From Octopus sinensis (lineage: Eukaryota), in contig NC_042997.1 of NCBI RefSeq assembly GCF_006345805.1, forward strand, positions 184,822,001 through 184,886,000: a stretch of 64,000 nt of DNA, written 5' to 3'. The notes under the pieces are model-generated. The model saw only the letters and a list, made by a program, of their open reading frames with translations. It was not told where the DNA came from and did not search any database. How positions within the stretch are numbered: position 1 is the first letter of the stretch; each line of letters starts with the position of its first letter. The position numbers were made by a program, and so were the translations under genes. This document shows, piece after piece, positions 7,236-63,974 of the stretch.

Positions 7236-7386
7236 AAATTATAATTTAGGGTATCAAAGAGATACCGCCACGCCGGAAATAGCAGCCAAATGCTGACTGT
7301 ATGAACATTTAATGTGGTTTTTGAGTCAGATTTTGGCTGCTATTTCCAGCGTGGCGGTATCTCTTAGATACCCTAAATTATAATTT
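7236..7386. mobile_element. Fold-back element in (TA)n; 63-bp inverted repeat 7236-7298/7324-7386
   Basis: Arms match ~59/63 with a 25-nt spacer. Contains GAAATAGCAGCCAAA, which is shared with the 55.4-kb element (GAAATAGCAGTCAAA). Confidence 0.7.
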
Positions 7387-8003
7387 ATATATATGTGTGT
7401 GTGTGTGTGTTTATGTATTTATTTATGTATGTATGCATGTATGTATTTATGTATGTATGCATGTATGTATTTATGTATGTATGCATGTATGTATTTATGT
7501 ATATAAGTATGTATGTATGTATATATATATTCACTACTCGTTACAGGTATTTTTGCTAGACATCGAGTGGAGACTTGTCTCATAATTTAGAATCAGTACA
7601 ACACCGCTATTGACGGGCACGTGGTATCATTGACACTTCTTCTGTTACCTTTTAACTCCGCAAATCTGAAAGCACAGAAATACATGCATGCGCAAACAAA
7701 ACATTATAGTCCGGGGTATTAGGAAGAACCATTAACGCTGTCACTGCGGTTGTGTTTTATATGTTATCAGCTTTTCCCATCTGACAGCTTTATTATCTCT
7801 TGGTGGTGAAAAGAACTGGCCTTTGCGTTGAGCACTTTTGTGCGCGTAGGTGTTTTCCTGTGTTCAGTGTACAAAACAATCTCATAAACACTGTTACTTA
7901 GATATAAAAATGTTTTAGAATCAGGTAACCAGGACAATGCAGGAATAAAAATACAAAGCAGTATAAAGACGAAACACTAAATATGTGCGTGTGTGGGTAT
8001 ATA

Positions 8004-8174
8004 GGCGTAGGAGTGGCTGTGTGGTAAGTAGCTTGCTTACGAAACACCTGGTTCCAGGTTCAGTCCCACTGCGTGGCACCTTGGGTGAATGTCTTCTACT
8101 ACAGCCTCGGGCTGACCAAAGCCTTGTGAGTGGATTTGATAGACGGAAACTGAAAGAAGCCCGTCGAGTATATG

Positions 8175-8217
<43 letters not shown>

Positions 8218-8440
8218 GTATGTGGGTGTGTATATGTTTGTGTCTCTGTGTTTGTCCCCCGCAACATCGCTTGACAACCGTTGCTGGTGTGTTTATGCCC
8301 CCGTAACTTAGCGGTTAGGCAATATAAACCGATAGAATAAGTAACTAGGCTTACAAAGAATAAGTCCTGGGACCAATTTTCCCGACTAAAGGCGGTGCTC
8401 CAGCATGGTCACACTCACATGACTGAAACAAGTAAAATAG
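8004..8440 (+). mobile_element. SINE family A, full length with internal microsatellite
   Basis: A-box-like TGGCTGTGTGG, B-box-like GGTTCAGTCCC, CCTTGGGTGAATGTCTT block, internal (TA)/(TATG) tract, 3' half ending GGCGGTGCTCCAGCATGG..ATGACTGAAACAAGTAAAA. Confidence 0.92.
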
Positions 8441-9219: not shown

Positions 9220-9385
9220 TTTTTATTACCCACAAGGGGCTAAACACAGAGGGGACAAACAAGGACAGACAAAGGGATTAAGTCGATTACATCGACCCCA
9301 GTGCGTAACTGGTACTTAATTTATCGACCCCGAAAGGATGAAAGGCAAAGTCGACCTCTGCGGAATTTGAACTCGGAACGTAACT
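9220..9385 (-). mobile_element. SINE family B (long-tail variant), 5'-truncated
   Basis: Reverse complement of GAGTTCAAATTCCGC.GAGGTCGACTTTGCCTTTCATCCTTTCGGGGTCGATAAATTAAGTACCAG. Tail matches the 37.7-kb copy. Confidence 0.9.
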
Positions 9386-9476
9386 ACAGATTTTCCAAGT
9401 ATATAAAGATGCCTGCATATGTGCGTCTGTGTGTGTGTGTGTGTAAGAGTGTGCATATGTGAGTGTGTGTGCTTGT

Positions 9477-10539: not shown

Positions 10540-11632
10540 GCACCTTCTATGCCTTTTATACTACAGACTACATTTCTAGTTCTACAGTTAATGCCAGGGT
10601 TAATCTTACATGTCATGCAGTTATCATTAGTGCATATGGTATTCTCAAAGGGGTACATCCTACATAGCTGTAATCTGATGGAGTTCCCTGGCTTTTTTCA
10701 ACAATCTTAATGTTGAATATGGTCTCCTTCAGAGCTTTCCTGAACCTACGGTCCAGTTCTCCATGGGCTGTGGTCTCCACAAACACCACTCCTTGATATT
10801 TATTGCTTTTATACCACGTGTTCACCCTGTTTGTTTTGTCACAAGCTCTTTGTATTCTATTCCAGTCTTTGCTTCTATATCTAGAGTAGATACCACTGGT
10901 TTCATTACATACAATGTTATCTAACTTCTTTCTAGCTCCCCTGTATACTCGAACCCTATCTTTCTGATCATATCCAGAGAACTGCATGCGCTCTGCGGTA
11001 TTTTTCTTCAGTGCTGAGGGGATGGCGTGTGGTCTTCCCCTCTGTGACCTGGTGGGGCAGGATCTACTAAGGTCATGGTCGTCTAAATGGTCACTGTCGT
11101 AGCTTAGTCTAAGTTCCTCCGTGTTGACTTCACGGAACTCTACTTCACTCTCACAGATTATTTCAATGCAATTCTCCTCAGCAAAATCTATGTCTATAGA
11201 TAGGTAGAGTGAAATTACATCCCCACTACTCACTACACGACCTATGAGGTCGTTGGAGTGGTTGCAAGTACTAATTTTACTGAGGAGGTCCTCCGTTCTC
11301 ACACAGACATCTGGGGACATTTCTATGGGAGGTCGTAATACCCGTGAGAGGTAGTAGGACAATCGGAGATATTCGCTTCACAAACTGGTCGGTTTGGTGG
11401 CCCCATAACAGGTTTTATGTAGGTTGTATGGTCTTTGCGTAGCCCCTGTATAGTGTAGGAACATCATTGTTGGATGCTTGAAAATTGTGTGCAGCCCATT
11501 TCTTAGGTTGGAATATTTTGCTCCACATTCCCGTGTGTGCATTGAGGAATTTTCTTTATGTTGGAAATCTATATGGTTGGCTGCTTCCGAAGAGAGCAGT
11601 TTACATCATTTTGATGTAATGTTTCCATTGAG

Positions 11633-15534: not shown

Positions 15535-15750
15535 TTCTTTTCTACTATAGGCACAAGGCCCGAAATTTGTTTTGGCGCAGGTGTGGGAGGCAGTCGATTA
15601 GATCGACACCAGTACGCAACTGGTAGTTAATTTATCGACTCCGAAAGGCAAAGTCGACCTCAGCGGAATTTGAAACCAGAACGTAAAGCCAGACGAAATA
15701 TCGCTAACCATTTCACCCGGCGTGCTAACGTTTCTGCCAGCTCGCCGCCT
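15535..15750 (-). mobile_element. SINE family B, full length
   Basis: Head GGCGGCGAGCTGGCAGAAACGTTAGCACGCCGGG, central block and tail. Flanked by imperfect ATTTATGGA.AAAATATT direct repeats (TSD-like). Confidence 0.9.
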
Positions 15751-15825
15751 TATTTATGGAAAAAAATATTAACCGCGTGTTAATTTGAATAATTAACACA
15801 TTTTTGGATATGTAAAATATTCTAT

Positions 15826-20313: not shown

Positions 20314-21505
20314 CTCGACATAGTTGTTAGGTCTGCTAGACATAGCAATAAAGTCTTGGATCGGGTAAGTGAGCTGAAACTAAAAAGTTAATATGAATGG
20401 TGTATGAAATAAGAATCGTTCATTAGTATCGTATTCAGATCCCATCAAAAGGACTTACAATGTTTGATCGCCATATAAACAATTACATTTCAATGTTATA
20501 GCATTGTTTTCACATGGAATGAAGGGTAGACTATTTAAAAAAAAGATCAAGCTGTAATAAAGGATAATGAACTACATAAGCACAAAACCACAGAATTAAG
20601 CAGAATGGTGTAATTTATAAATCGATACCAGTACTCAACTTGTACTAATCTTTTTGTCTCATGGGTGATAAAAGTCTGGTAGCGCCATTATTTTGAAATA
20701 TATATTAGGGACTAGACGCAGTATTAATACAGAGAGGTATTATTTATTCTCGCTTAAACATGGATGTTCAATTAAAACAAACTTTACTGCAATATTTAAC
20801 ATGGCAAAAAACACGCTTGTTTGTATATTTCACCAGCGGGGAGATAACTTCCTACCAACTAGCATGCTTTCGCCACCAAAGGCCTATATAAGAGTTTCTA
20901 TGGTAAATACCGCACTAAAGTTTATTATAACAGAACATTCACGTGTAAGTTGGAATAAATATTACCTCTCGTTATCAATTATGCCTGTGTCACTAATATA
21001 TATTTTGTAACATGCTAACTGGTTAATCGCGATACCAGTGCCTATTCTGGTACTGATTCTCTATATATCGCTAGCGGTGCCATGAGTCATTGCCATCTTT
21101 AGTGGTCGAGCATCAATCATCAATGAGATCAAAGGACGTTGAAATCACGTGAACCGGCGGTCTCGCTGCCGGAGTTGGTGGGGTGTTTTCTCCCCGTTGG
21201 CGATTTAAAAACAAGCAAGTGTGCGTTCTGCATCAAAACCCTATATGAGAGTTTCGATAATGGGAAATACTGGACTAAGATTTCTTGTAACAGAATATCC
21301 ACGCTAAAGTGGGAATATCCACGTTAAAGTGGGAAGAAATATAGTTTTGAAATAGCTTCGTCTTGAATTAGAGAAAGAAATAGAGCTATGGCATAGAAAT
21401 TAATATTATGCACTTTTGGTTGTAAAAAGTATTCTTACGATATTTAGTTCTTTTTGTAAACAATTGTTTCATAATTTAATTAATTACTTATAAAATAATA
21501 ATAAA

Positions 21506-21700: not shown

Positions 21701-23760
21701 TCGGTTTAGCAAGTAGACTAATAAGAAAGCATAAAATACATGATGAACTTTTTCCCTTTGTTAATATGATTATTTAATTATGTAGCTCTGTGTACTAGGT
21801 TTAAAGAGCTACTTAAAAAAAAAAAAACTTCAGGCATATTTATAATAGAACTAAAAACAATCTCTTCATATTAGGCGGAGTATTACATTTTGCCCTGTCG
21901 AGTATCATTCAACATCTGTTCGTCACATGAACGGGGGATAGAATATATGTATATTCCTTAAATCATCGCCCTGAAATATTTAGATTTAAGCCTGTCAAAA
22001 CCAAACACGTGATTTCTCAGAAGCTTTGTTATGACATTACTGTAATACTCTTCATAGCCAACAATAACCCCTAACAATACACAAAACATATAATTCTATT
22101 GTGTAAACAAAACAACCTAGAAACCAATTAGTCCTTATTATATTTTCCTTCTAATATTATCATAAAGCAAGCAAACATACATAAAACGGTTGATGTATCT
22201 CTGTTTTGGGCCTATGGGACTATAAATAGCTTATGGTCTCCATTTCTGCGAAATATTTCGTTGATAGCATCTGTGATGACTTGAAACATAGGATTTCAAG
22301 TTTGATAATAAGATATAACTAATCTTGTTATAGCGTTAACAGTAGTTAGAGTAATAGAGAATAACGATGAAGTTTACCTATCTATTTAATGACGTCCACT
22401 CGGTCGATTGGAGGTTCAGCTTCTGCGAGGAGACAGTTATTTTGTTAGTTTTGTTAATTGTTGATATATAATATAACGAAACACATGGTTGTATATTATC
22501 CAGTGAATATCAAAAGATGCTAAACATAATCAATGATGTTCACTAAATACAGCATCATGTCTAATTTAATCTGGCGGAATATAAAAGAATATAATTAAAA
22601 GCAAGTTGCCGTAATTACGACTTAATTCAACATATTGGCTACCAGATGACCACATAATTTACTAATTATGAAAGAGATTCACTGACAATTTTGTCATCAG
22701 TTATTTTCCTTTGAATATTAATGAAAAAAATTGATAAAATGCTGTATAAGGATTATATTTACAGATAACTAAAAAAACAAACAAACAAGGAGTTTATTTG
22801 CCATCATTCTACTGTATTGGATGGCATATAATTACTGACTGGTTTGTTATGTAACTCTGAGTTGCAGCATTCAAGTAATTGGTGTCCTGCTGCACTAATT
22901 AGTAAATATACAATTTTTTTGTATTATGCGTAGCATGCATATTAGTGCAGATGTGTACAATAGTTTCTGATACTCTCAAATTACTATTACATAGTGAAGG
23001 CTTCGAGACGGCCGAAATCCTAAGGATAACAAATGGTTAAATAAATATATTCACCTCTCGTGCCTCTTCACTTTTTATGGTTTATGTACTCCACATAAAA
23101 TAATTTCATCGAACGCATCTCCTGGATTTCAACTGCATAAATCTCTGTATTACTATGTGATTTACTCAACGGGTCAGCCTTCTATGAACTTAATGTGGAA
23201 CTGAACCACCGTAAATTAAAATATATTAGAAGAAATAAACTTGAAAGTGAGCTTCTAATGCAATAAATAAAGAAGCCTTCCAAAGCAATAACATAAACTT
23301 TGATGTAATTAGATAGAATCCTGACTTCGGCCAGCAACTGATGTGAAGCCGAGGTCAAATACATGAGTGTACAAACAGATCAGATTTCAGATTTAAAACA
23401 ACCTCGCTTCCCCTTGAATCTTAACCAATACACAACTAACTGAATTCAGTTCGCTTCGAGCCTAGATGGTCGAAAGACACAGAAGAAAATATTATACTCG
23501 GTGGTATATGCTACTAACTATACTCCGTGCCGTGGAAATGCGTGTCAGTCGTCGTGATCATAAAAATGCACTGTATAATAAAAGGTAATATAAATGTACT
23601 GTAAAATTAAAGGAAATAAATTTTGAGAATGTACCAGTCTCCATATTCTCTATCGTTAGAATTATTGCTAAGTCACTGGGACGTAAACAAACCTACATCG
23701 AATGACTAGCAATCGTGGTGGTGATGGTAGTGGTGGTGGTGGTGGGGCAAACACAGACAA

Positions 23761-24120
23761 GAGTGGCTGTGTGGTAAGTAGCTTGCTTACCAACCACATG
23801 GTTCCGGGTTCATTCCCACTGCGTGGCACCTTGGGAGAGTGTCTTCTATTATAGCCTCGGGCCGACCAAAGCCTTGTGAGTGGATTTGGTAGACAGAAAC
23901 TGAAAGAAACCTGTCGTATATATGTATATATGTATGTGTATGTATATGTTTGTCCCTCCCACATCACTTGACAACCGATGGCGGTGTGTTTACGTCCCCG
24001 TAACTTAGCAGTTCGGCAAATGGGACCGATAGAATAAATACTAGGCTTACAAAGATTTGCTCGACTAAAGGCGGTGCTCCAGCATGGCCGCAGTCAAATG
24101 ACTGAAACAAGTAAAAGAGA
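23761..24120 (+). mobile_element. SINE family A, near full length (preceded by an inverted piece of its own 3' half at 23668-23760)
   Basis: All family A blocks are present, followed by a (TACA)n tract. Confidence 0.92.
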
Positions 24121-24236
24121 GTATATATATATAATATATATATATATAATACATACATACATACATACATACATACATACATACATACATACATACATAC
24201 ATACATACATGCATACATACATATATATATATATAA

Positions 24237-28819: not shown

Positions 28820-29102
28820 TAATATCGCCATATGTGAAATCATCTGCATGTTTTATGTAATTTTATGATATAACAAGGAATTTACTGTTAAACGATTTTT
28901 AACTCCTGATAACGTTTTATCGGTTATAACATTTTCCCTATGATGCATTACTACATACAACACAGTACGTCAACAACATAATACTACCATATCTTCATTC
29001 AGAAAATGAGGCGAAAATGTTTTGAAATATTACGAAGCTTCATTTGAAAACTAACTAAACAGAAAACAACTTAGGAATAACAAAACATACCATATATATG
29101 TA

Positions 29103-29310
29103 GTGAGCTGGCAGAAACGTTAGCACGCCGGGCGAAGTGTTTAACGGTATTTCGTCTGTGTTTACGCTCAGAGTTCAAATTCCGCCGAGGTCAACTTTGC
29201 CTTTCATCCTTTCTGGGTCGATAAATTAAGTACCAGTTGCTTACTGGTGTCGATCTAATCGACCGCCCCCTCCCCAAATTTCGGGCCTTGTGCCTACAGT
29301 AGAAACGGAT
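29103..29310 (+). mobile_element. SINE family B, near full length
   Basis: GAGCTGGCAGAAACGTTAGCACGCCGGGCG..GAGTTCAAATTCC..GCCTTTCATCCTTT..GGGCCTTGTGCCTA. Confidence 0.9.
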
Positions 29311-35529: not shown

Positions 35530-35796
35530 GACCTATTTAATTAATAACAGCATATTTCTAACACCAGGCACCTGTTAGAAATAACATGTAAACTACTTGT
35601 AACATACAGCCCTTGCATCGAGACTTCATGTCTAACTACGAACACATATTAAAACTAACATCAGTTTTGTATCACATACAGAATTCTTGATAACAACAAC
35701 TTCTTCTTAATTATATGCATATTGTTTATTATAATTGTGTGCTGAAGATAGCAAAGAGACTATTTAACACACGAAATCCATTGTTCTTAAAACTCT

Positions 35797-36183
35797 TTTT
35801 ACATGTTTCAGTCATGTGACTGTGGCCATGCTGGAGCACCGCCTTCAGTCGAGCAAATCGACCCCAGGACTCCTTCTTTGTAAGCCTAGTACTTATACTA
35901 TCGGTCTATTTTGTCGAACCGCTAGTTACGGGGACGTAACCTAGCGGTTGTCAAGCGATGTTGAGGGAACAAACACAGACACACAAATATATACACACAC
36001 ATACATACGCACATACATATATACGGCGGGCTTCCTTCAGTTTCCGTCTACCAAATCCACTCACAAGGCTTTGGTCGGCTCGAGGGTATAGTAGAAGATA
36101 CTTGCCCAAAGTGTCACGCAGTGGGAATGAACCCGGAACCATGTGGTTCGTAAAGAAGCTACTTACCACACAGCCACTCCTGC
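35797..36183 (-). mobile_element. SINE family A, near full length
   Basis: Reverse complement of head, body, internal (CA/TA) tract and tail. Confidence 0.9.
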
Positions 36184-37662: not shown

Positions 37663-37895
37663 TATTTCTTTACTACCCACAAGGGGCTAAACACAGAGAG
37701 GACAAACAAGGACAGACAAACGAATTATGTCGATTACGTCGACTCCAGTGCGTAACTGGTACTTAATTTATCGACCCCGAAAGGATGAAAGGCAAAGTCG
37801 ACCTCGGCCGAGTTTGAACTCAGAATTGTAACGGCAGACGAAATACGGCTACGCATTTCGCCCGGCGTGCTAACGTTTCTGCTAGCTCTCCGCCC
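37663..37895 (-). mobile_element. SINE family B (long-tail variant) with 18-bp TSD
   Basis: TATAGGGTTGAGATTATA duplicated at 37645-37662 and 37896-37913. Confidence 0.93.
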
Positions 37896-39204
37896 TATAG
37901 GGTTGAGATTATAATCATCAGAAGGTTTGGAAATTGCAAGGGAAATGTAGCCCGTGATCATAAGGACAGTGTAAAGTCATGTACCATTAATCGGGTGAAG
38001 AAAAGAACATAGTGGAGACAATAACGTATAGGAGTCCAAGAACCTTATTCAGCTATTTGCTGAAGCTCTTTAGCATTTGATTCAAGTTATACTCGCAGTG
38101 TGTTTGTGAGTTCCAATGCTACAGTCGATGTTACTTGCCCAAGGTAGCTACGATGTCGGATCGAACCCGAAAGCACATAGTTTCGGAGCAAACTTTTAAA
38201 CCTGGAAGCTATGTCTGAATGTTGAAGTTTGTAAAACTGAAATACATAATTAGATAAAGAATTACAGACAGCGAAGAAATAAACATAGAGACAAGTAGAA
38301 CATTTTCTTTCAAATATGTACAGTTTGTTTTTATTATTACTTTTTTTTATAGGGTTTCTCCTTTTTTATTGTTAGTAAGATGCAAAATTTAATTAGCAGT
38401 ACATAGAGACGAACTTCTACACACGCAGAAAAGAGAAAAATACTCATAAAATTTCTGATATTTAAATATACAAACATGTTCTACTGTCAAAATTCAAAAA
38501 TATAAAATAACATGTGTTAACGAAACAAAATAAAAGAAATGGAGACAGCTCTTTCGAAAATGTTATGTTTGAATAGAATAATAAAAAAATGTAAAAAAAA
38601 AACCTCTTGCTATCAACCACGAATAGATTTCTACACCACATGGCACAAATATGTTGCAGGGTGAAATACCAGCAGAGACAATTTTTGGCCTCATCGGTGA
38701 ACTGTTTTAAAGATGTTGGTTTTCATAGCTTCGTTCTAGCCAATGTATTCTTCAGTTTTTAACTTTGGAATTTGTTATATGTTGATTTCTTCTTTTGCGA
38801 AATGAGATGGTTCTGCCATCCTTTTATCATGGGAGTTGCAAAGGTATTATATTTTATTAGACAAGCTGGAGGTAAATGAATATGAAAGATAGGCATTTGT
38901 TCGTTGGTAATTGAGTGCATAGCTCTGTAGGCTTAAAGGAAAGTAAGCCTTCGTTCTCATAGCATTAAACCTATTTAATGTTTTCTTGAAATCTGCTCAG
39001 GTTTCCCAATGTAATGCACACAGCTTGAATATGTTTGTCTACATGTATGTATTTATGTATGTATGTTGATATAATTACACGCTCGCACACACACACACCA
39101 TATACCCACACATATAATCCTTCTCCATATATATATATATATATATAAACAAGTATACTCATTTACTTGTTTATATATATATACACACACACATATACAT
39201 ATAC

Positions 39205-40426: not shown

Positions 40427-40466
<40 letters not shown>

Positions 40467-40469
40467 ACT

Positions 40470-40882
40470 CATTTGCTTGTTTCAGTCATTTGACTGTGGC
40501 CATGCTGGAGTCCCGCATTTAGTCGAGCAAATCGCCCCCAGGACTTATTCTTTGTAAGCCTAGTACTTATTCTATCGGTCTCTTTTGCGAACCGCTAAGT
40601 TACGGGGACGTAAACACACCAGCATCGGTTGTCAAGCGATGTTGGGGGGGGGGCAAACACAGACACACAAACATATACACATATACATACATATATATAT
40701 ATAATATAATATATATATACGACGGACTTCTTTCAGTTTCCGTCTACCAAATCCACTCACAAGGCTTTGGTCAGCCCGAGGCTATAGTAGAAGACACTTG
40801 CCCAAGGTGCCACACAGTGGGACTGAACCCGGTACCATGTGGTTCGGTAGCAAGCTATTTACCACACGGCCACTCCTACGCC
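40470..40882 (-). mobile_element. SINE family A, full length
   Basis: Reverse complement of all family A blocks. Confidence 0.93.
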
Positions 40883-43263
40883 TAACATATACATAAGTAT
40901 ATACACACGTGTATATATGTATGTATATATGTGTGTATGTATGTATGTATGTATGTATGTATGTATGTATGAATGGATGGATGGATGGATGGATGTATGT
41001 ATGTATGTTTGTATGTATGTATGTATGTATGTATGTATAGACACTCACATGTATCATATGTTGGCATGTGCGCCCAAGCGAGTGTAATTATATCCGTGTG
41101 TACATTTGTGTAATATTGTGTATTAGTGATTAATATGACTGCTTCATTAGAAAAGTTTGTGTCTATTGTTATAACGAAAGTGGCTTTATCTGGTATTTAG
41201 TCATTTAGTGGAAGATTAATCCTCAGTTAGACTTCAAAATAAAGTAGATGTCTGAAAATGTCGCCTACGTTTCAAGGATTAAATTGTGTCCACCTTCAGA
41301 CAAATTAAAGCCTATTAGTTTAGGTAGAAGAGAAATATATATCATGAAGAAAATTAGTTTATCATGAATACATTGTAATAGTGTATATAGAGAAATGAGA
41401 TCTTGAATAAATACTATTTGTTGCAAATTTCTATCAAAACTTAAAGAGGCAACGTTTATTGTCAGCGTAAACTTAATTGCGCATTAAATTTGAGATCGTG
41501 ACATCCCCTCTTTCTGACTAGAAGTCTCTCTCTGTCAAAATATTTGATTATAAACTATCGCATCTACGTTTACTTTTGTTATGTATGAATACATATTAAT
41601 ATATTTAATGTGATTATTCAACAAAATATTCAATATTCACTTTATAGGCCGTTTTCTTTTATATATAGAAGTATTTTTTCTCATGATTATATCCTTCTGA
41701 ACAAATTGTGTTTTATCTAGCCATTCTTTGACGACCATTTAAATAATAACTCCGCTCAAATCACCATCTTCGCATTTTAAAGAAAACAAATGACTAAATT
41801 TTATTAGATTTCGTGAATTAATATACTTCTTATTGTATATGATAGCATCACTTACAGTAAGTCAGACACTAAGAATTTAAAAATTGTCTTAAGTCAGCCT
41901 GATGCCTTGCTATTTTGTCTTTTACTAATACGCATGTTAGATGTTTCGGTTTCCACAAATTATATGAAGTAGATGCATATACAATTTGTTGTCGGAAAAT
42001 TTATATATAAATGCAAAATATTGTCTCACAGTAAAGTTCACCTTAAAAACTATTTATTCGAATTTTCTCTTATTTTAAGCGTAAAAGTGGCTTATTATTT
42101 TTTTCATAGACATTATATTTATTTCTTTTAACAGAACAGGACGTCAATATTTCTGTAACATTTATATCAATTTATTAAGAATTTTCTCAAAACGAATTCC
42201 AATGTGATACAGTTTAATCGATTACTCCTCCAAAATCAGAATAAAGAACTGGTTTTAAGCTGAACATAATAAATCAATGAGATTACAATGAAGCCATTAG
42301 CAGCACGCTAAAAGTGTCATTTCATAAATCCGCTTACTTTATATCCTTTCCTGGATTAACAATTTGTAATTAAAGTCATAATTAGTTTGACTTGGCTCAG
42401 TGCCGTTGTTTGTAGTGTCGTGAGAGAGGCTATTTAATTAGTTCTAGTATATATTTTATTTCTAATTATTATTATCGTCGTATCATTAAAGACTGTATTT
42501 AGAATTGCCTGAGCTATATTCTTGGTGATATCACGTTAAATATCGACTGACTCCAATTTATAGCAAAAGAGTGGAAATTATTATATCATATATAACATAT
42601 CAGGAATAGAATATGTGATCTACTTTAACCCAAAGATGGATTTATATATTTGCCGGTTATTTTATTGGCCTTCGAAATATGAAAATTAAAAAAGTATTGC
42701 TGAACCATGTAGATAAACTAATTTCATCAAATGAAGCATCTATTCCAGTTCTCTAATATATCAGCGGCTTCTACAAGTACCACTTGAATACCATAATGGT
42801 AGGAAGGAATACTATTTTCTATGTAACATGTTGTAGATTTTATGGAATATTAAGTCTAGTCATATTTCTGATAAACGTAATTTCGGTATTTCAAGCTCAG
42901 ATTCATAATAATATGCGCGTTACGACAAAAGTTAGAACTGAAGTTTTAGCTTGCACAACTTTCAGCACTTTGAAAATAATCGTACAAAAGATACACGAGA
43001 TTCATATACCTTAGCAAATTATGTCTTACATAATTTGCAATCAACAACAGCTCACATAACGGCTATTTCGGTATATATTGTGACAATGTACCATATTCTC
43101 ATTCGCAAGATTTTAAGTTGGTGATCCTCAAATTTGTTTCACCGAACGCTAAATTGTCTAAATTTTCATCCGATTCGAGTTTTCAATAGTTGCTGTCATT
43201 GAAGGAAAGCTTGGCACCAGCAGGTAGGAATTACATATACATACATACATACATACATACATA

Positions 43264-43320
<57 letters not shown>

Positions 43321-43403
43321 TATATTATTTAGAGATAGTAGTCCCTTTCATCCCACCATATAAAGAAATTTTAATTTAATTTAATACTTACTACTCATTT
43401 CTC

Positions 43404-43497
43404 GGCTACACGTGTTTCTCGAGGTTCTTTTACGGTTCCTTAAGCAGGCAGTGTTTTACAGGAACCTTTCTTAAGATGTAACCCCAATCATCAGGCC
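43404..43497 (-). ncRNA. Type I hammerhead ribozyme motif with extended helix II (left arm copy)
   Basis: Minus strand GGC-CUGAUGA-[69 nt closed by UUGGGGUU/AACCUCGA, inner GGUUCCU/AGGAACC]-GAAA-CACGUG-UA-GCC. Confidence 0.75.
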
Positions 43498-44057
43498 TCT
43501 AAGTAATTTTATAATAGTTCGATACCAAATACTATATTTGGTAGTTGTTTCGCCGAATCTTGCGACGTCAAGCCGAAACTAATACGTAGTAGGACAATGG
43601 TAGTCAACGGTAGTTTGTACATATTTTGTACCCTTAAGTTATTTTTACTTAGTAAATTTTTTAAATTTTTTATCATTCGTATCATTTGTAAATTTTCTTT
43701 TTGCATTTTGTCATTTGTTTTTATTCGAAAATATTTATTTGTCATTGCTTTCATTTTTATTCGAATATATTTATTTGTCATATCATTGCAAGTATATAAT
43801 TTATTTTTATCCCTATATATTATTAATTTTATATGAATGTTTACAGACATAAGTTACGCGAGAATTTGGTTTTTGTAAACTTTTACTTTTTATTTTTTAT
43901 TCGTATTTTTTATTTGTTTATTTTATTTGTTATTTTTATTTGAATTAAATTATGGCTTGCACAGTAATGTCCGGCGAACCTATTTACACATACACATACT
44001 TATTTGTTAAAATTAAAATATGGTATTTGGTATCGGACTATGATAAAGTTATTTAGA

Positions 44058-44151
44058 GGCCTGATGATTGGGGTTACATTTTAAGAAAGGTTCCTGTAAA
44101 ACACTGCGTGCTTAAGGAACCGTAAAAGAACCTCGAGAAACACGTGTAGCC
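44058..44151 (+). ncRNA. Type I hammerhead ribozyme motif with extended helix II (right arm copy)
   Basis: GGC(44058-60) CUGAUGA(44061-67), helix II 44068-44136, GAAA(44137-40), palindromic ACACGUGU helix III, GUA cleavage triplet (after 44148), GCC closing helix I. Confidence 0.75.
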
Positions 44152-44341
44152 GAGAAATGAGTAGTAAGTTTAAATTAAATTAAAATTCTTTTATATGGTA
44201 GGATGAAGGGGGCTACTATCTCTAAATAATATATATATATATTTCCTCATTGAGAATAATTTGAACCCCTGTGATGCCAGAATTTTTATTCCCTAATAAA
44301 TAAAATAAAATTTAAAAAATATATATATACACACACATTCA

Positions 44342-45865: not shown

Positions 45866-45996
45866 ATAATAATAATAATAATAAGAAGAAGAAGAAGAAC
45901 GGGGAAAAATAACTCTCAAAGGAACGGGGAAAATAACTCTCAAAGACTGGAACATTTACAATACCTCGTGAGTATTTGAAATTCTCTTCAAAGTGG

Positions 45997-46897
45997 GTTA
46001 AGAAATTTACAAATTTACATATCTGCAGCTTTCAAACATACATCCGATCGGCTTTAAAAACTTTAATACCCACAACTGCCTCTGTAAGCACCCCCTTTTT
46101 TTTTTTTTTTTTTTTCCCTTCTCTCTAAAAACATCACGCTTTTCTTTTTGTGGACTTGCAAAACCCTAAAACTTTCTATGAAAATCTGACTTTTCTTTGC
46201 TTCCTCCCAGAATATTCAAATATAATGTAAACATATACTTTTTATTGCAAAAACACACCTGTTCTTCTAACTGGACATACAAACATCTCTAGAGGGGTCA
46301 ACTTCAACCTCCACAATATTACCTTGCACGAAATATACAAACACTTTTTATTGCAATAACACAAACGCACATGGAAAAAATAATGATGCTAAGATTCTCT
46401 CTGGTCGAACACAGCTTCTCTATTCACAAATAATACAGAACAGCCCTTCAAAATAAGTTAAGAAAATTTACAAATTTACATATCTACAGTTTTCAATCAT
46501 ACATTCGACCAGCTTTAAAAATTTGATACCCACAATTGCCTCTGTAAACATCCTTTTTTTTCTTCTCTCTAAAAACATCACGCTTTTCTTTTTGTGGACT
46601 TACAAAACCCTAAAACTTTCTATGAAAATCTGACTTTTCTTTGCTTCCTCCCTGAATATTCAAATATAAATGTAAACATATACTTTTTATTGCAAAAACA
46701 CACCTGTTCTTCTAACTGGACATACAAACATCTCTAGAAAAGTCAACTTCAACCTCCACAATATTACCTTACACGAAATATACAAACACTTTTTATTGCA
46801 ATAACACAAACGCACATGGAAAAAAAAATGATGATGCTAAGATTCTCTCTGGTCGAACACAACTTCTCTATTCACAAACAATACAGAACAGCCCTTC
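45997..46897. repeat. Tandem direct duplication, period ~460 bp (45997-46449/46457-46897)
   Basis: Two highly similar copies from GTTAAGAAATTTACAAATTTACATATC to AATACAGAACAGCCCTTC. Confidence 0.95.
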
Positions 46898-47497
46898 CTT
46901 GATTTTTCTTAAGGCTAATAGTAGTAAACATCTGAACTTTTTTTGACCCCATCTAAAAAAAAAAAAAAAAAAATATCACTGGTGGTGATGGTGATGATGG
47001 TGATGATGATAATAATAATAGTAATAGTGCTGATAATCTATCTATCTATCTACACACACACACACACACACTCAAAGAGTTCAACCAACACAAACCTCAC
47101 CTCTATTGTTAACCAAATATGAACGTATTATTTGACAGGCAAGAACTCTGGCATTGAAGACAGTCAGCCAGCCAACCACCAAGCCAGCCAACGAGACAGA
47201 CAGACACTACTGTGATGGTGATAAGGATAAAAAAACAAAAATAACAATAAGATACTGCTGTGACTACACATAAAACAATATCATTGATGATGATGGTGGT
47301 GATGGTGATGGTGATGATGATAATGATGATGGTAATGGTGGTGATAATGATGATAGTGATAATAATGGTGATGATAATAACAATAATAAGCCGACTACGG
47401 CTGCTATAATGGTACGATTATAATTGTAACAGCAATGATGGCCGTCTCCCACGAGCCAACCAAAGCTAAAAAATGATAACATTATCGTAGCACCAAA

Positions 47498-48379
47498 ATG
47501 TTTTTGGAAACTAAAAGGAAAAAATCAGTATACCAAATCGCTTGTCCTATGGTTAATCTGGAAGCGCGTCCCCCAGGGAAGAGCCAGCCTGGGACCGAAA
47601 AGTCATCAACTGGCACAAACTCTTCTCCGAATACGGACATGGATGGTCACTTGAACGGGAAATCCCCCAACTCGAGCCCTCCAAGTTCACCACCACAACC
47701 ACCACAGAAAGAAAAATGTAAGCGGAACAAATGGACCCGAGAAGAGTATGAAGAAGTAATATACGCTTATTACTATGCATTAGGTAGGCCATATCAAGAG
47801 AGACACACCGCAAACTCTTACAGTATATGGAGAACACGGAATCAAGACAGTAGGCCCTATTTGGACGAGAACAAATTAGCAAATTTGAGGAGGGATATCC
47901 TTAGAAATAACAGACTCACAGGCAGTGAAATAAGCGCGATCAAGCACGCAACGGAAAATGACATAAATATAAGACACAAAGGAAATGAAGAATCAGATGA
48001 ACAGTATAGCCCGCCACGAGGCTTAATTGAAAGACTGCCATCTGACCAAAGTACGCAAAGGCCTGAAGATACAAGAAATTCTATTGTACCTGTTAAAGAT
48101 AGCCAGGAAAACGAAAAAACAACAGTAACTGAAGATCTCGCATCTGCTGAAGAACACAGAGAGTCTATGGCAGAAATGAGGCAGAAAATCCTGAATACAC
48201 TTGAAGTTGTAAGACATACAAGTATGAATGATAGAGAACCACTTCATAAACTCTCAAATACAAACCAAAATAAAAAACAAATCCAAATTGGCAACTATGT
48301 AACAAATGAAATAATACGAGAATTAAAACCTGATTTTACTGAGTTAAATGAAATTATTTACGCTTCTGCTAGGAATTGA
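47498..48379 (+). pseudogene. Dong/R4 ORF N-terminal segment
   Basis: KWTREEYEEVIYAYYYA..YSIWRTRN..LDENKLANLRRDILRNNRL, as in R4/Dong N-termini. Continues after frameshifts into WRSKIEKEI and KRIRRFEKRNKFYKQNKLF. Confidence 0.75.
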
Positions 48380-48750
48380 AACCAGCTGTATGCCCCCGAA
48401 AAAACAAAGAAAACCAAACCTGGGAAGAAATCAAACCTGGAGAAGTAAAATTGAAAAAGAGATTGAATTTATGAGAGGGGAAATATCAATATTAAATGAA
48501 CTAATATGTGGAAATGATGTAAGATCCAGAACAGGAAGAAAGATGAAGAGAAAATTTGGATCCTCACCAAGAGAAGAACTGATATCAATAAAAGAAACGC
48601 TGAAACAAAAGTCCAAGCAAAAGCCAAAGAATACGAAGATTTGAGAAGAGAAACAAGTTTTACAAGCAAAATAAACTGTTCACATCCAATGCCAAAAAAT
48701 TCTACAGAGAAATAGAGAAGGAGAAAGTAACCGTTAAAGACCCCCCTCCC

Positions 48751-50805
48751 ATGGAAGAAATTCAAAACTTTTGGAAAAGTATTTGGAGTGACAAGAAGAC
48801 GTACAACATAAATGCAGACTGGATTATACAAACTGAAGGATCCTACCAAAATTTACAACAACAAGCATGGGAAGACATCACAATAACAGACCTAAGAAAG
48901 GCACTCACGAAGGCCCATAATTGGAAATCCCCCGGCAAAGATAGGGTGCCGAATTTCTGGCTCGCATCGCTCCCATGCGCACACGGTAAGCTAGTTCAGC
49001 TGCTCAATGGAATTATGAGAGACCCAAAGAAAACACCTGAATGGTTAGCAAGTGGCATTACTTACCTACTCCCAAAGAATAACGAAACCAACCTTCCAAA
49101 AAACTATCGGCCTATAACCTGTCTATCCACCACGTATAAAATCCTAACATCTATCCTGGCGGAGAAAACATATGCATTCAGGGAGAAGAACGATATTTTC
49201 CCCATTGAACAAAAAGAGTGCCGCCGAGGCTCTTACGGATGCAAAGATCAACTGCTAATCAATCGTATGATCCTTGAGAACTGTCACAACAAGCGCAGAA
49301 ATCTCAGCACCGCATGGATTGACTATAAAAAGGCCTTCGACAGTATACCGCATCCATGGATCTTGAGATCGCTGGACATCTTCAAAATTTCCCCTGTGAT
49401 TTCAAACTTCCTGAAGCACAATATGTCGTTGTGGAATACGAATCTCCAATTATACCACTCTAATGGAGTACTTGCCTCAGAAAATATAAACATCAACTGT
49501 GGAATTTTTCAAGGTGACTCACTTTCACCTTTAATATTCTGCATAGCCCTAATACCCCTTACAAGTGAATTAAACAGAACAGGGTATGGGTATAAAATTG
49601 CCAATAAAAAAATAAGCCATCTATTTTATATGGATGACTTAAAACTTTATGGTAAAGACAATAATGAACTTGAAGGCCTATTGTGCACTGTGAAAGCATT
49701 CAGCGATGACATCGGGATGGAGTTTGGACTTGAGAAGTGTGCCAAGGCCACTTTCCAGAAAGGGAAAGTGAAGACCACAAATTCAGTCGTGTTAGATGTT
49801 GACACATTCATAAGAGAGCTTGAGAAAGAACAAACATACAAATATTTAGGGATAAATGAAGGCTCTGGTATTCAGCATGCAAGCATGAAAGAGAAGATCA
49901 GGAAGGAATGTTATAGGAGAGTTCGTGCAGTCCTGAAATCTGAACTAAATGCACGTAACAAGGTGTTAGCTATAAATTCCTTAGCAGTTCCAGTTGTTAC
50001 TTATAGCTACAATGTGTTGAACTGGAATATGAGTGAAGTAAAGAATATAGATAGGAAAATACGCAAGCTGCTGAGTTGTAATAGGATGCACCACCCAAAA
50101 GCAGACGTAGATCGCCTTTACCTTCCCAGAGCCCAAGGAGGTCGAGGCCTGATCCAATTTGAACTAGCTTACAAAACAACCACAATTGGACTGGCCAAAT
50201 ATCTCGAAATATCGAATGACTGGATGCTAAAGCTCGTGGAAAATCACGAGAGACGAAAGAAGCTTCATTCTATTATAAAGGAAAGCAAAAAATTTGCTAT
50301 TGATCTCGTGCAGGATACCCAAACAGAACAACCCGAGGGAAGTTCGGCAATTATTGTTGCAAAGGTGAAAATAATGGCAACGAAAAAAGCGCACGAGCAA
50401 TTGGCTGATAGGTGGGAGGAGAAACCTCTGCACGGCAAATATGTGACCCGCAGCAAACAAGCTGATGTTGACCAGAAGCAAACCCATCAGTGGCTACGGA
50501 GCTCAGGGCTAAAAGCAGAGAGCGAAGGTTTCATCCTGGCTGCTCAAGATCAAAGCCTATTAACCCGGAACTACCAGGCCAATGTGATGAAAAATGGAGC
50601 AGACCCAAAATGCCGATTCTGCAACGACATGATTGAAACAGTGGACCACCTAATCTCTGGATGTAAAGTCTTAGCTCCAGTGGAGTATAAATTAAGACAT
50701 GACAGAGTTGGCAAATATCTACACTGGCTAATAAGTCGGCATTACAATATCAAAACTGCCGACAAGTGGTATAATCACCACCCTGAGGCTGTAACTGAAA
50801 GATAA
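48751..50805 (+). CDS. Reverse transcriptase and CCHC zinc knuckle of the Dong/R4 element (interrupted ORF)
   Basis: NWKSPGKD, NYRPITCL, WIDYKKAFDSIPH, GIFQGDSLSPL, HLFYMDDLKL, YKYLG, CRFC..ETVDHLISGC, RHD. Confidence 0.93.
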   Translation: MEEIQNFWKSIWSDKKTYNINADWIIQTEGSYQNLQQQAWEDITITDLRKALTKAHNWKSPGKDRVPNFWLASLPCAHGKLVQLLNGIMRDPKKTPEWLASGITYLLPKNNETNLPKNYRPITCLSTTYKILTSILAEKTYAFREKNDIFPIEQKECRRGSYGCKDQLLINRMILENCHNKRRNLSTAWIDYKKAFDSIPHPWILRSLDIFKISPVISNFLKHNMSLWNTNLQLYHSNGVLASENININCGIFQGDSLSPLIFCIALIPLTSELNRTGYGYKIANKKISHLFYMDDLKLYGKDNNELEGLLCTVKAFSDDIGMEFGLEKCAKATFQKGKVKTTNSVVLDVDTFIRELEKEQTYKYLGINEGSGIQHASMKEKIRKECYRRVRAVLKSELNARNKVLAINSLAVPVVTYSYNVLNWNMSEVKNIDRKIRKLLSCNRMHHPKADVDRLYLPRAQGGRGLIQFELAYKTTTIGLAKYLEISNDWMLKLVENHERRKKLHSIIKESKKFAIDLVQDTQTEQPEGSSAIIVAKVKIMATKKAHEQLADRWEEKPLHGKYVTRSKQADVDQKQTHQWLRSSGLKAESEGFILAAQDQSLLTRNYQANVMKNGADPKCRFCNDMIETVDHLISGCKVLAPVEYKLRHDRVGKYLHWLISRHYNIKTADKWYNHHPEAVTER

Positions 50806-51177
50806 AATGTAACCATTCTGTGGGACTTTCCAGTACATACAGACCGAACCATCAAGGCCAATAAACCAGATATTGTTGTGAAAGACCAAAACAATAAAGT
50901 TTGCTTATTGATCGACATGAGCATCCCCTGTGATCATAATATCTCAGCGAAAGAGTTTGACAAGCTCAGAAAATATAAAGACCTACTCATTGAAATTGAG
51001 AAAATGTGGCATCTCAAGGCGGTTACAATACCAGTGATCGTAGGGGCACTAGGAATGATCAAGAAGGGAACCGAAAATTATATGAGAATGATCCCTGGCT
51101 TACCATCCCTGCAAGAAGTGCAAAAGATTGTCTTAACTGGTACATCACACGTATTGAGAAGAGCATTGTCGACGTGA
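50806..51177 (+). pseudogene. Restriction-like endonuclease domain, in frame beyond the premature stop
   Basis: ILWDFPVHTDRTIKANKPDIVV..LIDMSIPCD.NI..KEFDKLRKYKDL..IPVIVGALG (PD..D..K motif). Confidence 0.88.
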
Positions 51178-54712: not shown

Positions 54713-55205
54713 AAAAAATATTATATATATATATGTACTCACACTTCGAGCACTTGTCATGTAACCTATTACCGTAAATTGAATAAAGTATATTAAACTA
54801 TTTTTCGCTCTGGGCCCAATGATACGCCTTAGATTTTAAGCGCGATTTATTCACTCTTCTTTTTACTAGTTGATTGTCTCTTTGTTGACTGTTTTTAATA
54901 TCCGGATTCAAAAATATTTTGCATCTTTACTACCTTCATGAATATTTCCCCGTAATCTACTGACTACATTTTAATTTCCGGATCCTAAAAAATCCCTGCA
55001 CTTTTCGGTATTAAAGATTTTTTGTAATGCATTGTCAGTAACCCGGCTACAAAATTTTACCGAAAATGTTACCGATTTTTCTTTCACATTATTTCATTTT
55101 TTTTTTAGTTTAAAGAAAATTTAAGATATTTCATATATTCTAATACTTTTTAAAATTCTGTTATATAAGTTATATACGCTCGAGTGTACATGTACACATG
55201 TATGT

Positions 55206-55248
<43 letters not shown>

Positions 55249-55309
55249 AATATAAATGATATATAAATATATGCATATATACATCTATACAGGACATCAA
55301 AAAACGATA

Positions 55310-55342
<33 letters not shown>

Positions 55343-56057
55343 GGTTATCCGTAATAATGAAGGGTGAAATTAATTAATTTGGAATAATTATCAATTACAC
55401 CAAGTAGTCTTCGGCATGTAAAAGCCTCATTCGAGGAAAATTTAAGTAATACTAAGCAATAAAGGGTTTAGCAACGAATTGCCTTACCACATACCGAATT
55501 TAGAAATAGCAGTCAAAGAGTTATAGCTATTTCTTCTACTAAAAAGGGAGATCTCAGTAAAAACAGCAATTGGAAGGCAGACACAAAAAGGTAAGAGAGA
55601 ATGAATTGACGGCAATCTATCATACATTTTTAAGTTATCTACGGACGTACGTTTCGAAATCAAGTTTTTAGGAAAGCATAAGAATTAAATATTAAATATT
55701 AAATAATTCTATCTTACCGAAACTTCTTTTCTCTTCAGCGTAGAATACTATAATCATAAATGATTATATATTGAATTTTGAGATACTAGAAGGCACCAAC
55801 ACAACTCAGTATCAGAGCGAGCTAGAATCCGCAACTAGTATCACCGAATTCAATGTGTGAATGAAACGATTGTGTCACCAGCCCCTTCCCACCCGCGTGT
55901 AGCCAAAACAAGATGCTGTGGTCATCTTCCAATTGCTGTTTTTACTGAGATCTCCCTTTTTAGTAGAAGAAATAGCTATAACTCTTTGACTGCTATTTCT
56001 AAATTCGGTATGTGGTAAGGCAATTCGTTGCTAAACCCTTTATTACTTAGTATTACT

Positions 56058-56058
<1 letters not shown>
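55343..56058 (-). mobile_element. Non-coding fold-back element with 133-bp inverted arms (55444-55576/55926-56058) enclosing a hammerhead; in (TA)n
   Basis: Arms match 132/133. One arm extends ~100 bp further. (TA)n on both sides. Confidence 0.85.
55638..55744 (-). ncRNA. Type I hammerhead ribozyme motif with 76-nt helix II
   Basis: Minus strand UCUACG-CUGAAGA-[GAAA..AAGUUU..AGAAUUA / UAAUUCU..AAACUU..UUUC]-GAAA-CGUACG-UC-CGUAGA: 6-bp helix I, G-C closing pair of helix II, palindromic helix III, GUC triplet. Confidence 0.85.
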
Positions 56059-56091
<33 letters not shown>

Positions 56092-56129
56092 ATATATATA
56101 TAATATATATATAATATATATATGCATAT

Positions 56130-56296
56130 ATGTAGGGAGAATTCACAAAAAACAAACGTCAAAGACAGGTGGTGTAGATAACAATCAGATGTATTAGGAT
56201 AACGCTCGGTAAGCGAAAAGTCGTTAACGTTTCCACAGAAAGGAACACCGAAAGAAACAAGGAGAGAAAAGAAATAATGTGTAGTGGCTAGCAACA
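56130..56296 (-). mobile_element. Relative of the 17.0-17.2 kb element with the hammerhead core deleted
   Basis: ACGCTC.G.AA..TTAACGTTTC..CAGAAA order conserved, but the helix II/CUGANGA segment is missing. Confidence 0.55.
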
Positions 56297-62767: not shown

Positions 62768-62799
62768 TGTTTGTATATATGTATCTTTGTATGTATATA

Positions 62800-63205
62800 G
62801 GTGTAGGAGAGGCTGTGTGCTAAGTAGCTTGTTTACCAGCCACATGGTTCCGGGTTCAGTCCCACTGCGTGGCTCCTTGGGCAAGTATCTTCTACTATAG
62901 CCCCGGGCCGACCAAAGCCTTGTGACTGGATTTGGAAGACAGAAACTGAAAGAAACCTGTCGTATATATGTATATATATATATGTGTGTGTGTATGCTTG
63001 TGTGTCTGTGTTTGTCCCTCTAACATAGCTTGACAACCGATGCTGGTGTATTTACGTCGCCGTAACATAGCGGTTCGGCAAAGAAGCCAATAGAATACGT
63101 ACTAGGCTTACAAAGAATAAGTCCTGGGGTGGATTTGCTCGACTAAAGGCAGTGCTCCAGCACGGCTACAGTCGAATGACTGAAACAAATAAAAGAGTAA
63201 AAGAG
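62800..63205 (+). mobile_element. SINE family A, full length, followed by long (TATG)n to ~63540
   Basis: All family A blocks are present. Confidence 0.92.
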
Positions 63206-63351: not shown

Positions 63352-63812
63352 TGTATGCATGAATGTATGTATGTACATGTATGTATGTATGTATGTATGT
63401 ATGTATGTATGTATTATGTATGTATTATGTATGTATGTATGTATGTATGTATTATGTATGTATGTATGTATGCATGTGTGTATGCATTTGTGTATGCAGT
63501 GTGTATGCAGGTGTGTATACATGTGTGTATGCATGTAGTTATGTGTTCATGTGCGTCCGCTTGCCTTTATACGTTTATGTTCGCGTGTAAATGTGCATCC
63601 TTGCTTTTATTTATTTTTTCTGTAAATTTCGTTGCTAAAAGTTAGAAATGGCTTTGCAATTGATAAATGACTTTCTTCTTATATCAGTGGAATATCACAA
63701 GGGTAAAGAACCCCTTCGGTCATGAATGACCACAGGATTGTATCTAGAAAGTTCCCCCTAAGAAGAACAAATCCGGGGAAGGTTGTTTATGAAATATCAG
63801 TAATATCAGTAA

Positions 63813-63974
63813 GCGTAGGAGTGGCTGTGTGGTAAGTAGCTTGCTTACGGACCACACGGTTCCGGATTCAGTCCCACTACGTGGCACCTTGGACAAGTGT
63901 CTTCTACTATAGCCTCAGGCCGACCAAAGCCTTGTGAGTGGATTTGGTAGACGGAAACTGAAAGAGGCCCGTCG
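63813..63974 (+). mobile_element. SINE family A 5' half (runs into (TA)n at the window end)
   Basis: Head and body match the other copies. Confidence 0.9.

Follow-up and report, generated by a model that had tools for sequence, protein, structure and literature searches.

The locus examined here raised the question of how a hammerhead-like ribozyme motif came to lie between long, near-perfect inverted arms, and whether the motif belongs to a mobile element that could use it. The motif sits near 55.7 kb of the window, by which we mean the whole 64,000-nt stretch of Octopus sinensis DNA that was analysed. The window is 28–42% GC and is rich in (TA)n, (CA)n, and dispersed repeats.

A type I hammerhead motif with a complete core was found on the minus strand at 55744–55638 by a descriptor scan combined with pair probabilities. 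Helix I has 6 bp, UCUACG/CGUAGA, with 55744–55739 paired to 55643–55638. The scan placed the CUGAAGA core box at 55738–55732, and folding assigned 55731–55656 to a G-C closed helix II of 76 nt. The segment at 55655–55644, located by both methods, holds the GAAA box, the 8-nt palindrome ACGUACGU of helix III (55652–55645), and the GUC triplet, and the cut is predicted after GUC, between 55644 and 55643. The core contains CUGANGA, GAAA, an NUH triplet, and the A15.1-U16.1 and G10.1-C11.1 pairs. All the parts of the canonical-core hammerhead proposed by the sequence-only reading, including the 6-bp helix I and the 76-nt helix II, were located as claimed. When folded, helix II starts with 4 bp and a 2x2 internal loop and continues as a long, imperfect, AU-rich stem, and its apical part carries a 7-nt repeat three times (55684–55705).

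On both strands of the window, this was the sole match of the descriptor scan with a helix I of at least 4 bp. A stricter descriptor (helix I of at least 3 bp, helix II of at least 4 bp, palindromic helix III) gave three matches in the window, which were the 55.7-kb motif and the two arms of an insert near 44 kb, and gave none in 150 order-2 Markov copies of the window. Rfam release 15 returned no match at the gathering score over the whole window, and hammerhead families were absent among the 11 matches at E≤10 on 55300–56100, in agreement with the earlier expectation that standard models would miss the motif. The core with a helix II of 52–82 nt and the palindrome ACGUACGU was not found in a viral contig collection. 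The same pattern had 15 matches in a metagenome contig collection, which were rejected as chance since none had both helix I and the helix II base at 4 bp or more (the best were 5/1, 0/4, and 3/3). The single BLAST match of the unit to these metagenome contigs was 17 bp at the pattern. Neither collection consists of animal genomes, and the negative outcome carries little weight.

Predicted folding indicates how such a ribozyme might work. Folding of the 589-nt copy at 37 °C gave pair probabilities of 0.85–0.97 for helix I and for the base of helix II. The palindrome that had been described earlier as helix III is present, but it does not form a stable helix in one molecule, as its pair probabilities were at most 0.04. 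In a dimer model, the palindromes pair as an 8-bp duplex, with −54.6 kcal/mol compared to −42.2 kcal/mol for two monomers, and the helix I strands are also swapped between copies. Helix III is predicted to form only between the palindromes of two copies, and self-cleavage of the unit as a dimer is likely under this model. The monomer transcript, which was the first construct suggested by the sequence-only reading, is predicted to cut poorly. Dimeric Penelope hammerheads were reportedly described by Lunse et al. in 2017.

Helix II alone folded better than shuffled sequences (z −2.5, with 10 of 500 as good). The whole 107-nt motif was no better than its shuffles (z −1.1, 76 of 500 as good), and the 136-nt stretch around the motif gave z −0.8. 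The 589-nt copy folded far better than its shuffles (z −4.0, a level reached by 0 of 60), and the unit is predicted to form a highly self-paired rod that carries the ribozyme at its tip. Folding placed 2x2 internal loops after the 6 bp of helix I and after the 4 bp of helix II, and at the position of loop 2 it gave a 2x2 internal loop and the long stem instead. In this model, a loop contact between helix I and helix II could be kept in a new form.

The element around the motif was then delimited with public sequencing runs. Contigs of 4 of the 24 listed runs (X1, X2, X3, and X15) were aligned to 55335–55935. In all four, the end of the element joins back to its start and the total is always 600 nt. 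The joint runs from 55927 to 55339 with 11 letters between in X2, X3, and X15, and from 55929 to 55339 with 9 letters between in X1. X15 contains the whole unit in a single contig of 631 nt, the two ends of which share 30 nt, and a cyclic contig of this kind is the mark of a tandem array or a circle. By these end-to-start joints, the direct copy in the window (55339–55927, minus strand) is 589 nt of a 600-nt non-coding unit, read through an uncut ribozyme site. Four listed groups of loose ends at 55925/55927 (7 and 11 records in X1, 6 and 8 in X2) all enter the unit start, and among the loose ends listed no new sequence appeared beyond the unit 5′ end. In X3, the joint had a depth of 133 and a contig ran across the cut site; a circle and a multimer look alike in such data. 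Two complete hammerheads in a row were not recorded among the contigs of the four runs.

Contigs matching the unit numbered 6549 in X1 and 2641 in X2. Since these numbers are so high, and three quarters of the X1 contigs (4895 of 6549) have at least 95% identity, the unit family is abundant and young. The depth at the joint in X1 and X2 was only 40–83, whereas over most of the unit the depths sum to about 10^5–10^6, and summed contig depth is not equivalent to copy number. This also applies to a depth step near 55440 in X2, which is compatible with a preferred 3′ end. At least half of the element's words are carried by 20 of the 24 listed runs, which come from 11 studies and six organism codes, and the best holder is perhaps the window's own source. 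None of the 24 listed runs is recorded as RNA, and this survey bears nothing on expression. X15 has another organism code, and the unit had a depth of 5 in it compared to 28–34 for its other listed contigs. The unit copies in X15 may be carry-over and X15 was not counted as a host.

The 589 nt have a GC content of 0.34, and the longest frames are 66 and 40 codons. The direct copy held no tRNA, the unit held no reverse transcriptase (RT) or GIY-YIG coding frame or coding remnant, and self-comparison revealed no direct terminal repeats. No autonomous partner element was identified. Some records among the loose ends listed match only 55499–55540 and then run into other sequence, and a longer relative of the unit may exist.

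The arms are explained by the layout of the insertion. On the minus strand, the order is (TA)n, an inverted piece of 134 nt, 589 of the unit's 600 nt, and (TA)n. The left (TA)n target tract (55201–55342) overlaps the unit end by 4 nt, and the right tract (56058–56131) overlaps the end of the inverted copy by 2 nt. The inverted piece, or right arm (55926–56059, plus strand), is a 5′-truncated second copy, and the part of the direct copy that it mirrors is the left arm (55443–55576, minus strand). The two copies adjoin head to head, with 2 bases (55926–55927) in common. The 3′ end of the inverted copy is 104 nt upstream of the 3′ end of the direct copy, and the stretch between the two 3′ ends is a one-sided tail (55339–55442, minus strand). 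A second hammerhead-like string in the tail (about 55436–55404, minus strand) was examined and rejected, as its core is broken and it folds with 55497–55474.

The arms had been given as 132 of 133 identical and as enclosing the element. Delimited as above, they are 133 of 134 identical; near-perfect inverted arms are indeed present, but the element is not bounded by them since 104 nt lie outside the left arm. At the lone difference, 55457, the arms differ by an allele that 26–28% of the family carries in X1 and X2, a hint that two template molecules were used. Because this difference is a common family allele, the arms have no clearly private change, which fits a recent insertion, and with the young age of the family this supports the recent insertion proposed earlier. 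Because the inverted piece is a 5′-truncated second copy and the left arm is internal to the unit, the arms are not terminal repeats. They are likely a by-product of Penelope-type integration.

Penelope-like elements leave a footprint with an inverted 5′-truncated copy at the 5′ end, a one-sided tail of 30–40 bp, and microsatellite targets (Craig et al., extracts of PMC8557442), and the tail has been shown to be the stretch between two internal priming sites (Frangieh et al., extracts of PMC11167929). In the insertion studied here, an inverted 5′-truncated copy adjoins the 5′ end and the target is a microsatellite. The tail is 104 nt compared to the 30–40 nt described for Penelope-like elements and, by analogy, is likely the distance between two reverse-transcription starts. 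The direct copy crosses the ribozyme site and lacks only 11 nt of a full unit, which means that it was copied from an uncut or religated template, either circular or multimeric. A strand change between 55389 and 55646, the latter 3 nt from the predicted cut, was seen in one X1 contig. Two of the three intervening letters at this joint fit either side, and it is one contig whose polarity is not given. A joint of this appearance would result if a cDNA ran off a self-cleaved 5′ end.

Next, variation within the family was compared between parts of the unit. The variants listed were 40 of 83 rows, covering 22 of the 25 X1 sites and 27 of the 36 X2 sites. Two sites private to the window copy were removed, giving 26 family sites, and changes in X3 were not counted. 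Among the variants listed, 19 sites fell in the 299 nt on the 3′ side of the ribozyme, 3 in the ribozyme itself (107 nt), and 4 in the 5′ flank (183 nt). Helix II had none in 76 nt (p = 0.025 compared to the rest, a signal that two unlisted sites in helix II would erase, with p = 0.14), and it was no quieter than the 5′ flank (0/76 compared to 4/183, p = 0.25). Within the ribozyme, one variant turns a U-A pair of helix I into U-G, another lies at the partner position (jointly C-G, unphased), and the third is at the palindrome centre. Three small indel variants affected helix II, one of which removes one of the 7-nt repeats. CUGAAGA, GAAA, and GUC were free of listed DNA variants at 3% or more. 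Frequent variants are thus sparser in the ribozyme than on its 3′ side, and the low variation is not peculiar to helix II.

Run X3, which we presume to be RNA, showed a different spectrum. Of its differences, 50 of 72 were A>G or T>C, compared to 26 of 61 in X1 and X2 together (p = 0.003); compared to C>T/G>A only, the excess had p = 0.08. Nine sites listed in X3 were below 0.1% in both DNA pools, and six of these were A>G and one was T>C. The pattern looks like A-to-I editing of transcripts from both strands, mostly antisense, which inverted copies would invite. Another possible explanation is that X3 is another sample, in which case the differences may be allelic instead of due to editing. 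Some low-depth X3 contigs over 55339–55927 had 18–25 differences in 130–215 nt and are possible hyper-edited transcripts.

The reading that best accounts for the locus, to which we give a probability of about 0.72, is that it is one dispersed member of an abundant non-coding repeat with 600-nt head-to-tail units, likely a non-LTR retrozyme, and that it was likely inserted by a Penelope-type RT and endonuclease. The unit length, the head-to-tail junction, the intact core, the non-coding nature, and the insertion layout are direct observations. The proposed course of events begins with tandem copies of the unit, which would be transcribed. Neighbouring hammerheads would pair and cut after GUC, releasing 600-nt monomers. 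A host ligase might then close the monomers into circles, by analogy with the retrozymes of coral, mussel, and axolotl (Cervera and de la Pena 2020; extracts of PMC7229834). A Penelope-type enzyme would nick both strands of a (TA)n tract and prime two cDNAs internally, 104 nt apart. The first cDNA would extend for 589 nt, passing a ribozyme site that was uncut or had been religated, and the second would end at 134 nt; the two would then be joined head to head over the 2 shared bases. Only one of nine Xenopus retrozyme dimers cut in vitro, and the hammerhead of an anole element cut only with its protein (extracts of PMC11167929). Circles of this unit, if real, would rank with the largest known from animal retrozymes. 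If the hammerhead does not cut, the element would be an ordinary non-autonomous repeat.

As mobilisers of animal retrozymes, Penelope-like elements have been named as candidates on the basis of co-occurrence and sequence kinship. The locus offers a retrozyme-type unit that carries a Penelope integration footprint and two defined priming sites, which are usable in the existing in vitro assay. Extracts of the PMC8557442 supplement tabulate an octopus Hydra-clade element with a (TA)n preference and a short-helix hammerhead, and this element is a candidate for the enzyme donor. In Octopus vulgaris, 31 recently active Penelope-like families have been reported (extracts of PMC13282606), which are likewise candidates rather than matched partners.

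Among the rival explanations, the one that survives best, which we consider unlikely, is that the element derives from an autonomous Penelope-like element, either as a pLTR or through internal deletion, and was copied from linear read-through RNA of tandem copies, with an inherited hammerhead and no circle stage. The insertion footprint is purely Penelope, and a multimeric linear template would also account for read-through of the cut site. Retrozymes have been proposed to descend from pLTRs, and the records that share only 55499–55540 and then diverge, among the loose ends listed, also favor such a derivative. However, all the listed loose ends at the unit 5′ end return to its 3′ end and the unit has no coding remnant. 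Minimal pLTR hammerheads have a helix I of 4–5 bp, a helix II of 7–8 bp, and an extra base before position 10.1. Here, helix I has 6 bp, helix II has 4 bp plus the extension, and no extra base precedes G10.1, so that the geometry is canonical rather than minimal. Also, four short motifs, three from the unit and one from the 44-kb element, were absent from the extracts of the PMC8557442 supplement, which includes three octopus families. How this explanation differs from the retrozyme reading is in part a matter of naming.

A satellite-like repeat with a dead hammerhead relic is somewhat less probable again. Here, growth of helix II by slippage would have disabled the loop contacts, and the repeat would have spread passively through Penelope activity or recombination. 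This could explain the three 7-nt repeats and the 7-nt deletion allele in the apical helix, and it would agree with a 107-nt motif that folds no better than shuffles and with the finding that most of the tested retrozyme dimers were uncut. Homogenised arrays could also mimic conservation. It does not account as well for the core positions, which are all intact in the window copy, or for the lack of listed DNA variants of at least 3% in CUGAAGA, GAAA, and GUC. Furthermore, the changes that were observed keep pairing, or the wobble pairing of the palindrome, and an inversion joint was observed 3 nt away from the cut. Finally, a MITE or DNA transposon with 134-bp terminal inverted repeats and the ribozyme as cargo would fit the near-perfect inverted arms and TA flanks, but it is highly improbable given that the arms are asymmetric with 104 nt of family sequence outside the left one, that the left arm falls inside the 600-nt unit, that the right arm starts abruptly at a 2-nt overlap absent from the listed family junction records, and that another copy inverts at different positions.

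Returning to the retrozyme reading, a bolder version of it can be proposed tentatively. In this version, the unit would be an abundant cephalopod retrozyme with a 600-nt circle and a working 76-nt helix II, acting either through a contact with the helix I internal loop or as a protein-binding arm. It would be the founding member of a long-helix-II class of animal hammerheads unseen by Rfam and published descriptors, to which the unrelated 44-kb motif would also belong, and the Penelope-type enzyme would prime twice on the circle and stop 11 nt short of a full turn. If this reading of priming on the circle is true, the locus would provide direct genomic evidence for the mobiliser of animal retrozymes.

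The 44-kb motif lies in a fold-back insert in (TA)n at 43324–44230, with arms of about 215 nt that are 94% alike and 476 AT-rich nt between them. Each arm carries a hammerhead about 80 nt from its outer end, in which helix II is 69 nt long and closed by U-A, helix I has 3 bp, and the triplet is GUA. The insert resembles a Penelope-type pair that has been truncated and belongs to a different family. A non-repeat stretch of 74 nt at about 44240–44320 may be its tail. The unit and the 44-kb element had no BLAST match and their local scores were within those of shuffles; for helix II, the score was reached by 551 of 2000 shuffles, which upholds the claim that the two motifs are unrelated in sequence. 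The further claim of a shared structural subclass was borne out only for the long helix II, which is 69–76 nt in both. A common conserved subclass was not shown, as length is all that is shared: helix I is 6 bp in the 55.7-kb motif and 3 bp in the 44-kb motif, the closing pairs are G-C and U-A, and the cleavage triplets are GUC and GUA, respectively. Two unrelated long helices II in one window suggest that there are more in this genome.

Several other features were observed in the window. At 7236–7386, a 150-bp head-to-head fold-back with 63-nt arms (94% alike) lies in (TA)n. Its arms match 14 of 15 bases of the unit at 55503–55517 in the same orientation, 40 nt from (TA)n compared to 60 nt in the 55.7-kb arm. 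The score of this 15-mer match was reached by 14 of 3000 shuffles and by 9 of 3318 window tiles, three of which are the element itself. It is possible that this fold-back and the unit share a 3′ module. The listed loose ends also cluster at 55499–55540, and the match by itself is only modestly above chance. A near-intact LINE-type coding region in three stop-to-stop frames is found at 47480–51177 on the plus strand (Pfam RVT_1, E = 1.6e-28), and by eye its C-terminal part resembles a restriction-like endonuclease. Upstream of it are a 460-bp tandem duplication at 45986–46897 and (TAA)n tracts. An open frame of 254 codons at 10613–11377 on the minus strand had no Pfam match and Atlas matches of 0.75–0.76; judged by eye, it resembles a decayed piece of a Penelope-type RT. 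A decayed reverse-transcriptase fragment at 6052–6838 on the plus strand matched Pfam RVT_1 below the cut-off (E = 0.0009). An old 310-bp palindromic insert at 20696–21005 is 67% self-complementary and has AT-rich ends. There are also two dispersed SINE-like families with copies that are 75–91% alike, several of them split by internal (TA)n or (CA)n. The first set is at 8002–8440, 23758–24121, 35793–36182, 40466–40884, 62774–63199, and 63810–63974, and the second set is at 9227–9390, 15539–15753, 29102–29305, and 37674–37898.

The 76-nt helix II exceeds those of all 31 tabulated Penelope-type hammerhead elements, the longest of which is about 53 nt by our own count over 34 rows in the extracts of File S2 of PMC8557442. 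The helix II domains in those extracts are mostly 9–24 nt, and the longest, about 48 and 53 nt, belong to two spike-moss elements. Elsewhere in the hammerhead literature, a "long" helix or stem II means 6–8 bp (extracts of PMC13725137 and PMC3088659). The most likely interpretation of the long helix II is a tolerated, partly constrained extension grafted at the usual loop 2 site, and a putative function of its own is possible. The family was undescribed in the literature searched on octopus hammerheads and retrozymes and on long helix II; Repbase, Dfam, or the supplements of the retrozyme papers may contain it or longer helices II. The word "ribozyme" was absent from the extracts of the 2026 Octopus vulgaris repeat annotation, and the giant squid paper, in extracts, gives 235 Rfam hammerhead matches. 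The catalytic boxes and three-helix order of the Rfam hammerhead models are the same as in the unit, which was nonetheless unmatched at the gathering score and at E≤10. An abundant hammerhead family can therefore escape Rfam due to a long helix II, and counts of animal hammerheads may be low.

Lastly, the unit was compared to known systems. Like the non-LTR retrozymes described in extracts of PMC7229834 and of the 2026 preprint by Li, Clavereau and Pollet (10.64898/2026.07.22.740005), it is a non-coding head-to-tail unit with one type I hammerhead and a GC content below 50%, a strongly self-paired fold that leaves the ribozyme free, and many dispersed monomers. The axolotl motifs that cut as dimers have a weak palindromic helix III, as in the unit. 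The unit size of 600 nt is outside the 150–450 nt given in 2020 and inside the range of 51–972 nt for retrozyme units in the 2026 preprint, and the retrozyme circles that were tested have 170–400 nt compared to the 600-nt unit here. No cephalopods were covered in the extracts of these two papers. The copy described here has a Penelope-type inversion and tail, in contrast to the main text of PMC7229834, where the words "inverted" and "microsatellite" are absent. The canonical metazoan hammerhead has a helix I of 6 bp, a helix II of 4 bp, and a short palindromic helix III (extracts of PMC4209133), and the helix II of retrozymes is 4 bp with a short loop compared to 76 nt here. Penelope-like elements that bear an endonuclease share the inverted 5′-truncated copy, the one-sided tail, and the (TA)n targets, and they also have a sense hammerhead upstream of the 3′ end with a palindromic helix III, as in the unit (extracts of the Penelope papers above). 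They differ in having an RT/GIY-YIG frame, whereas the unit is a closed 600 nt with a 104-nt tail and canonical geometry. What is unusual here is the length of helix II, and the parts of the element are otherwise of known kinds.
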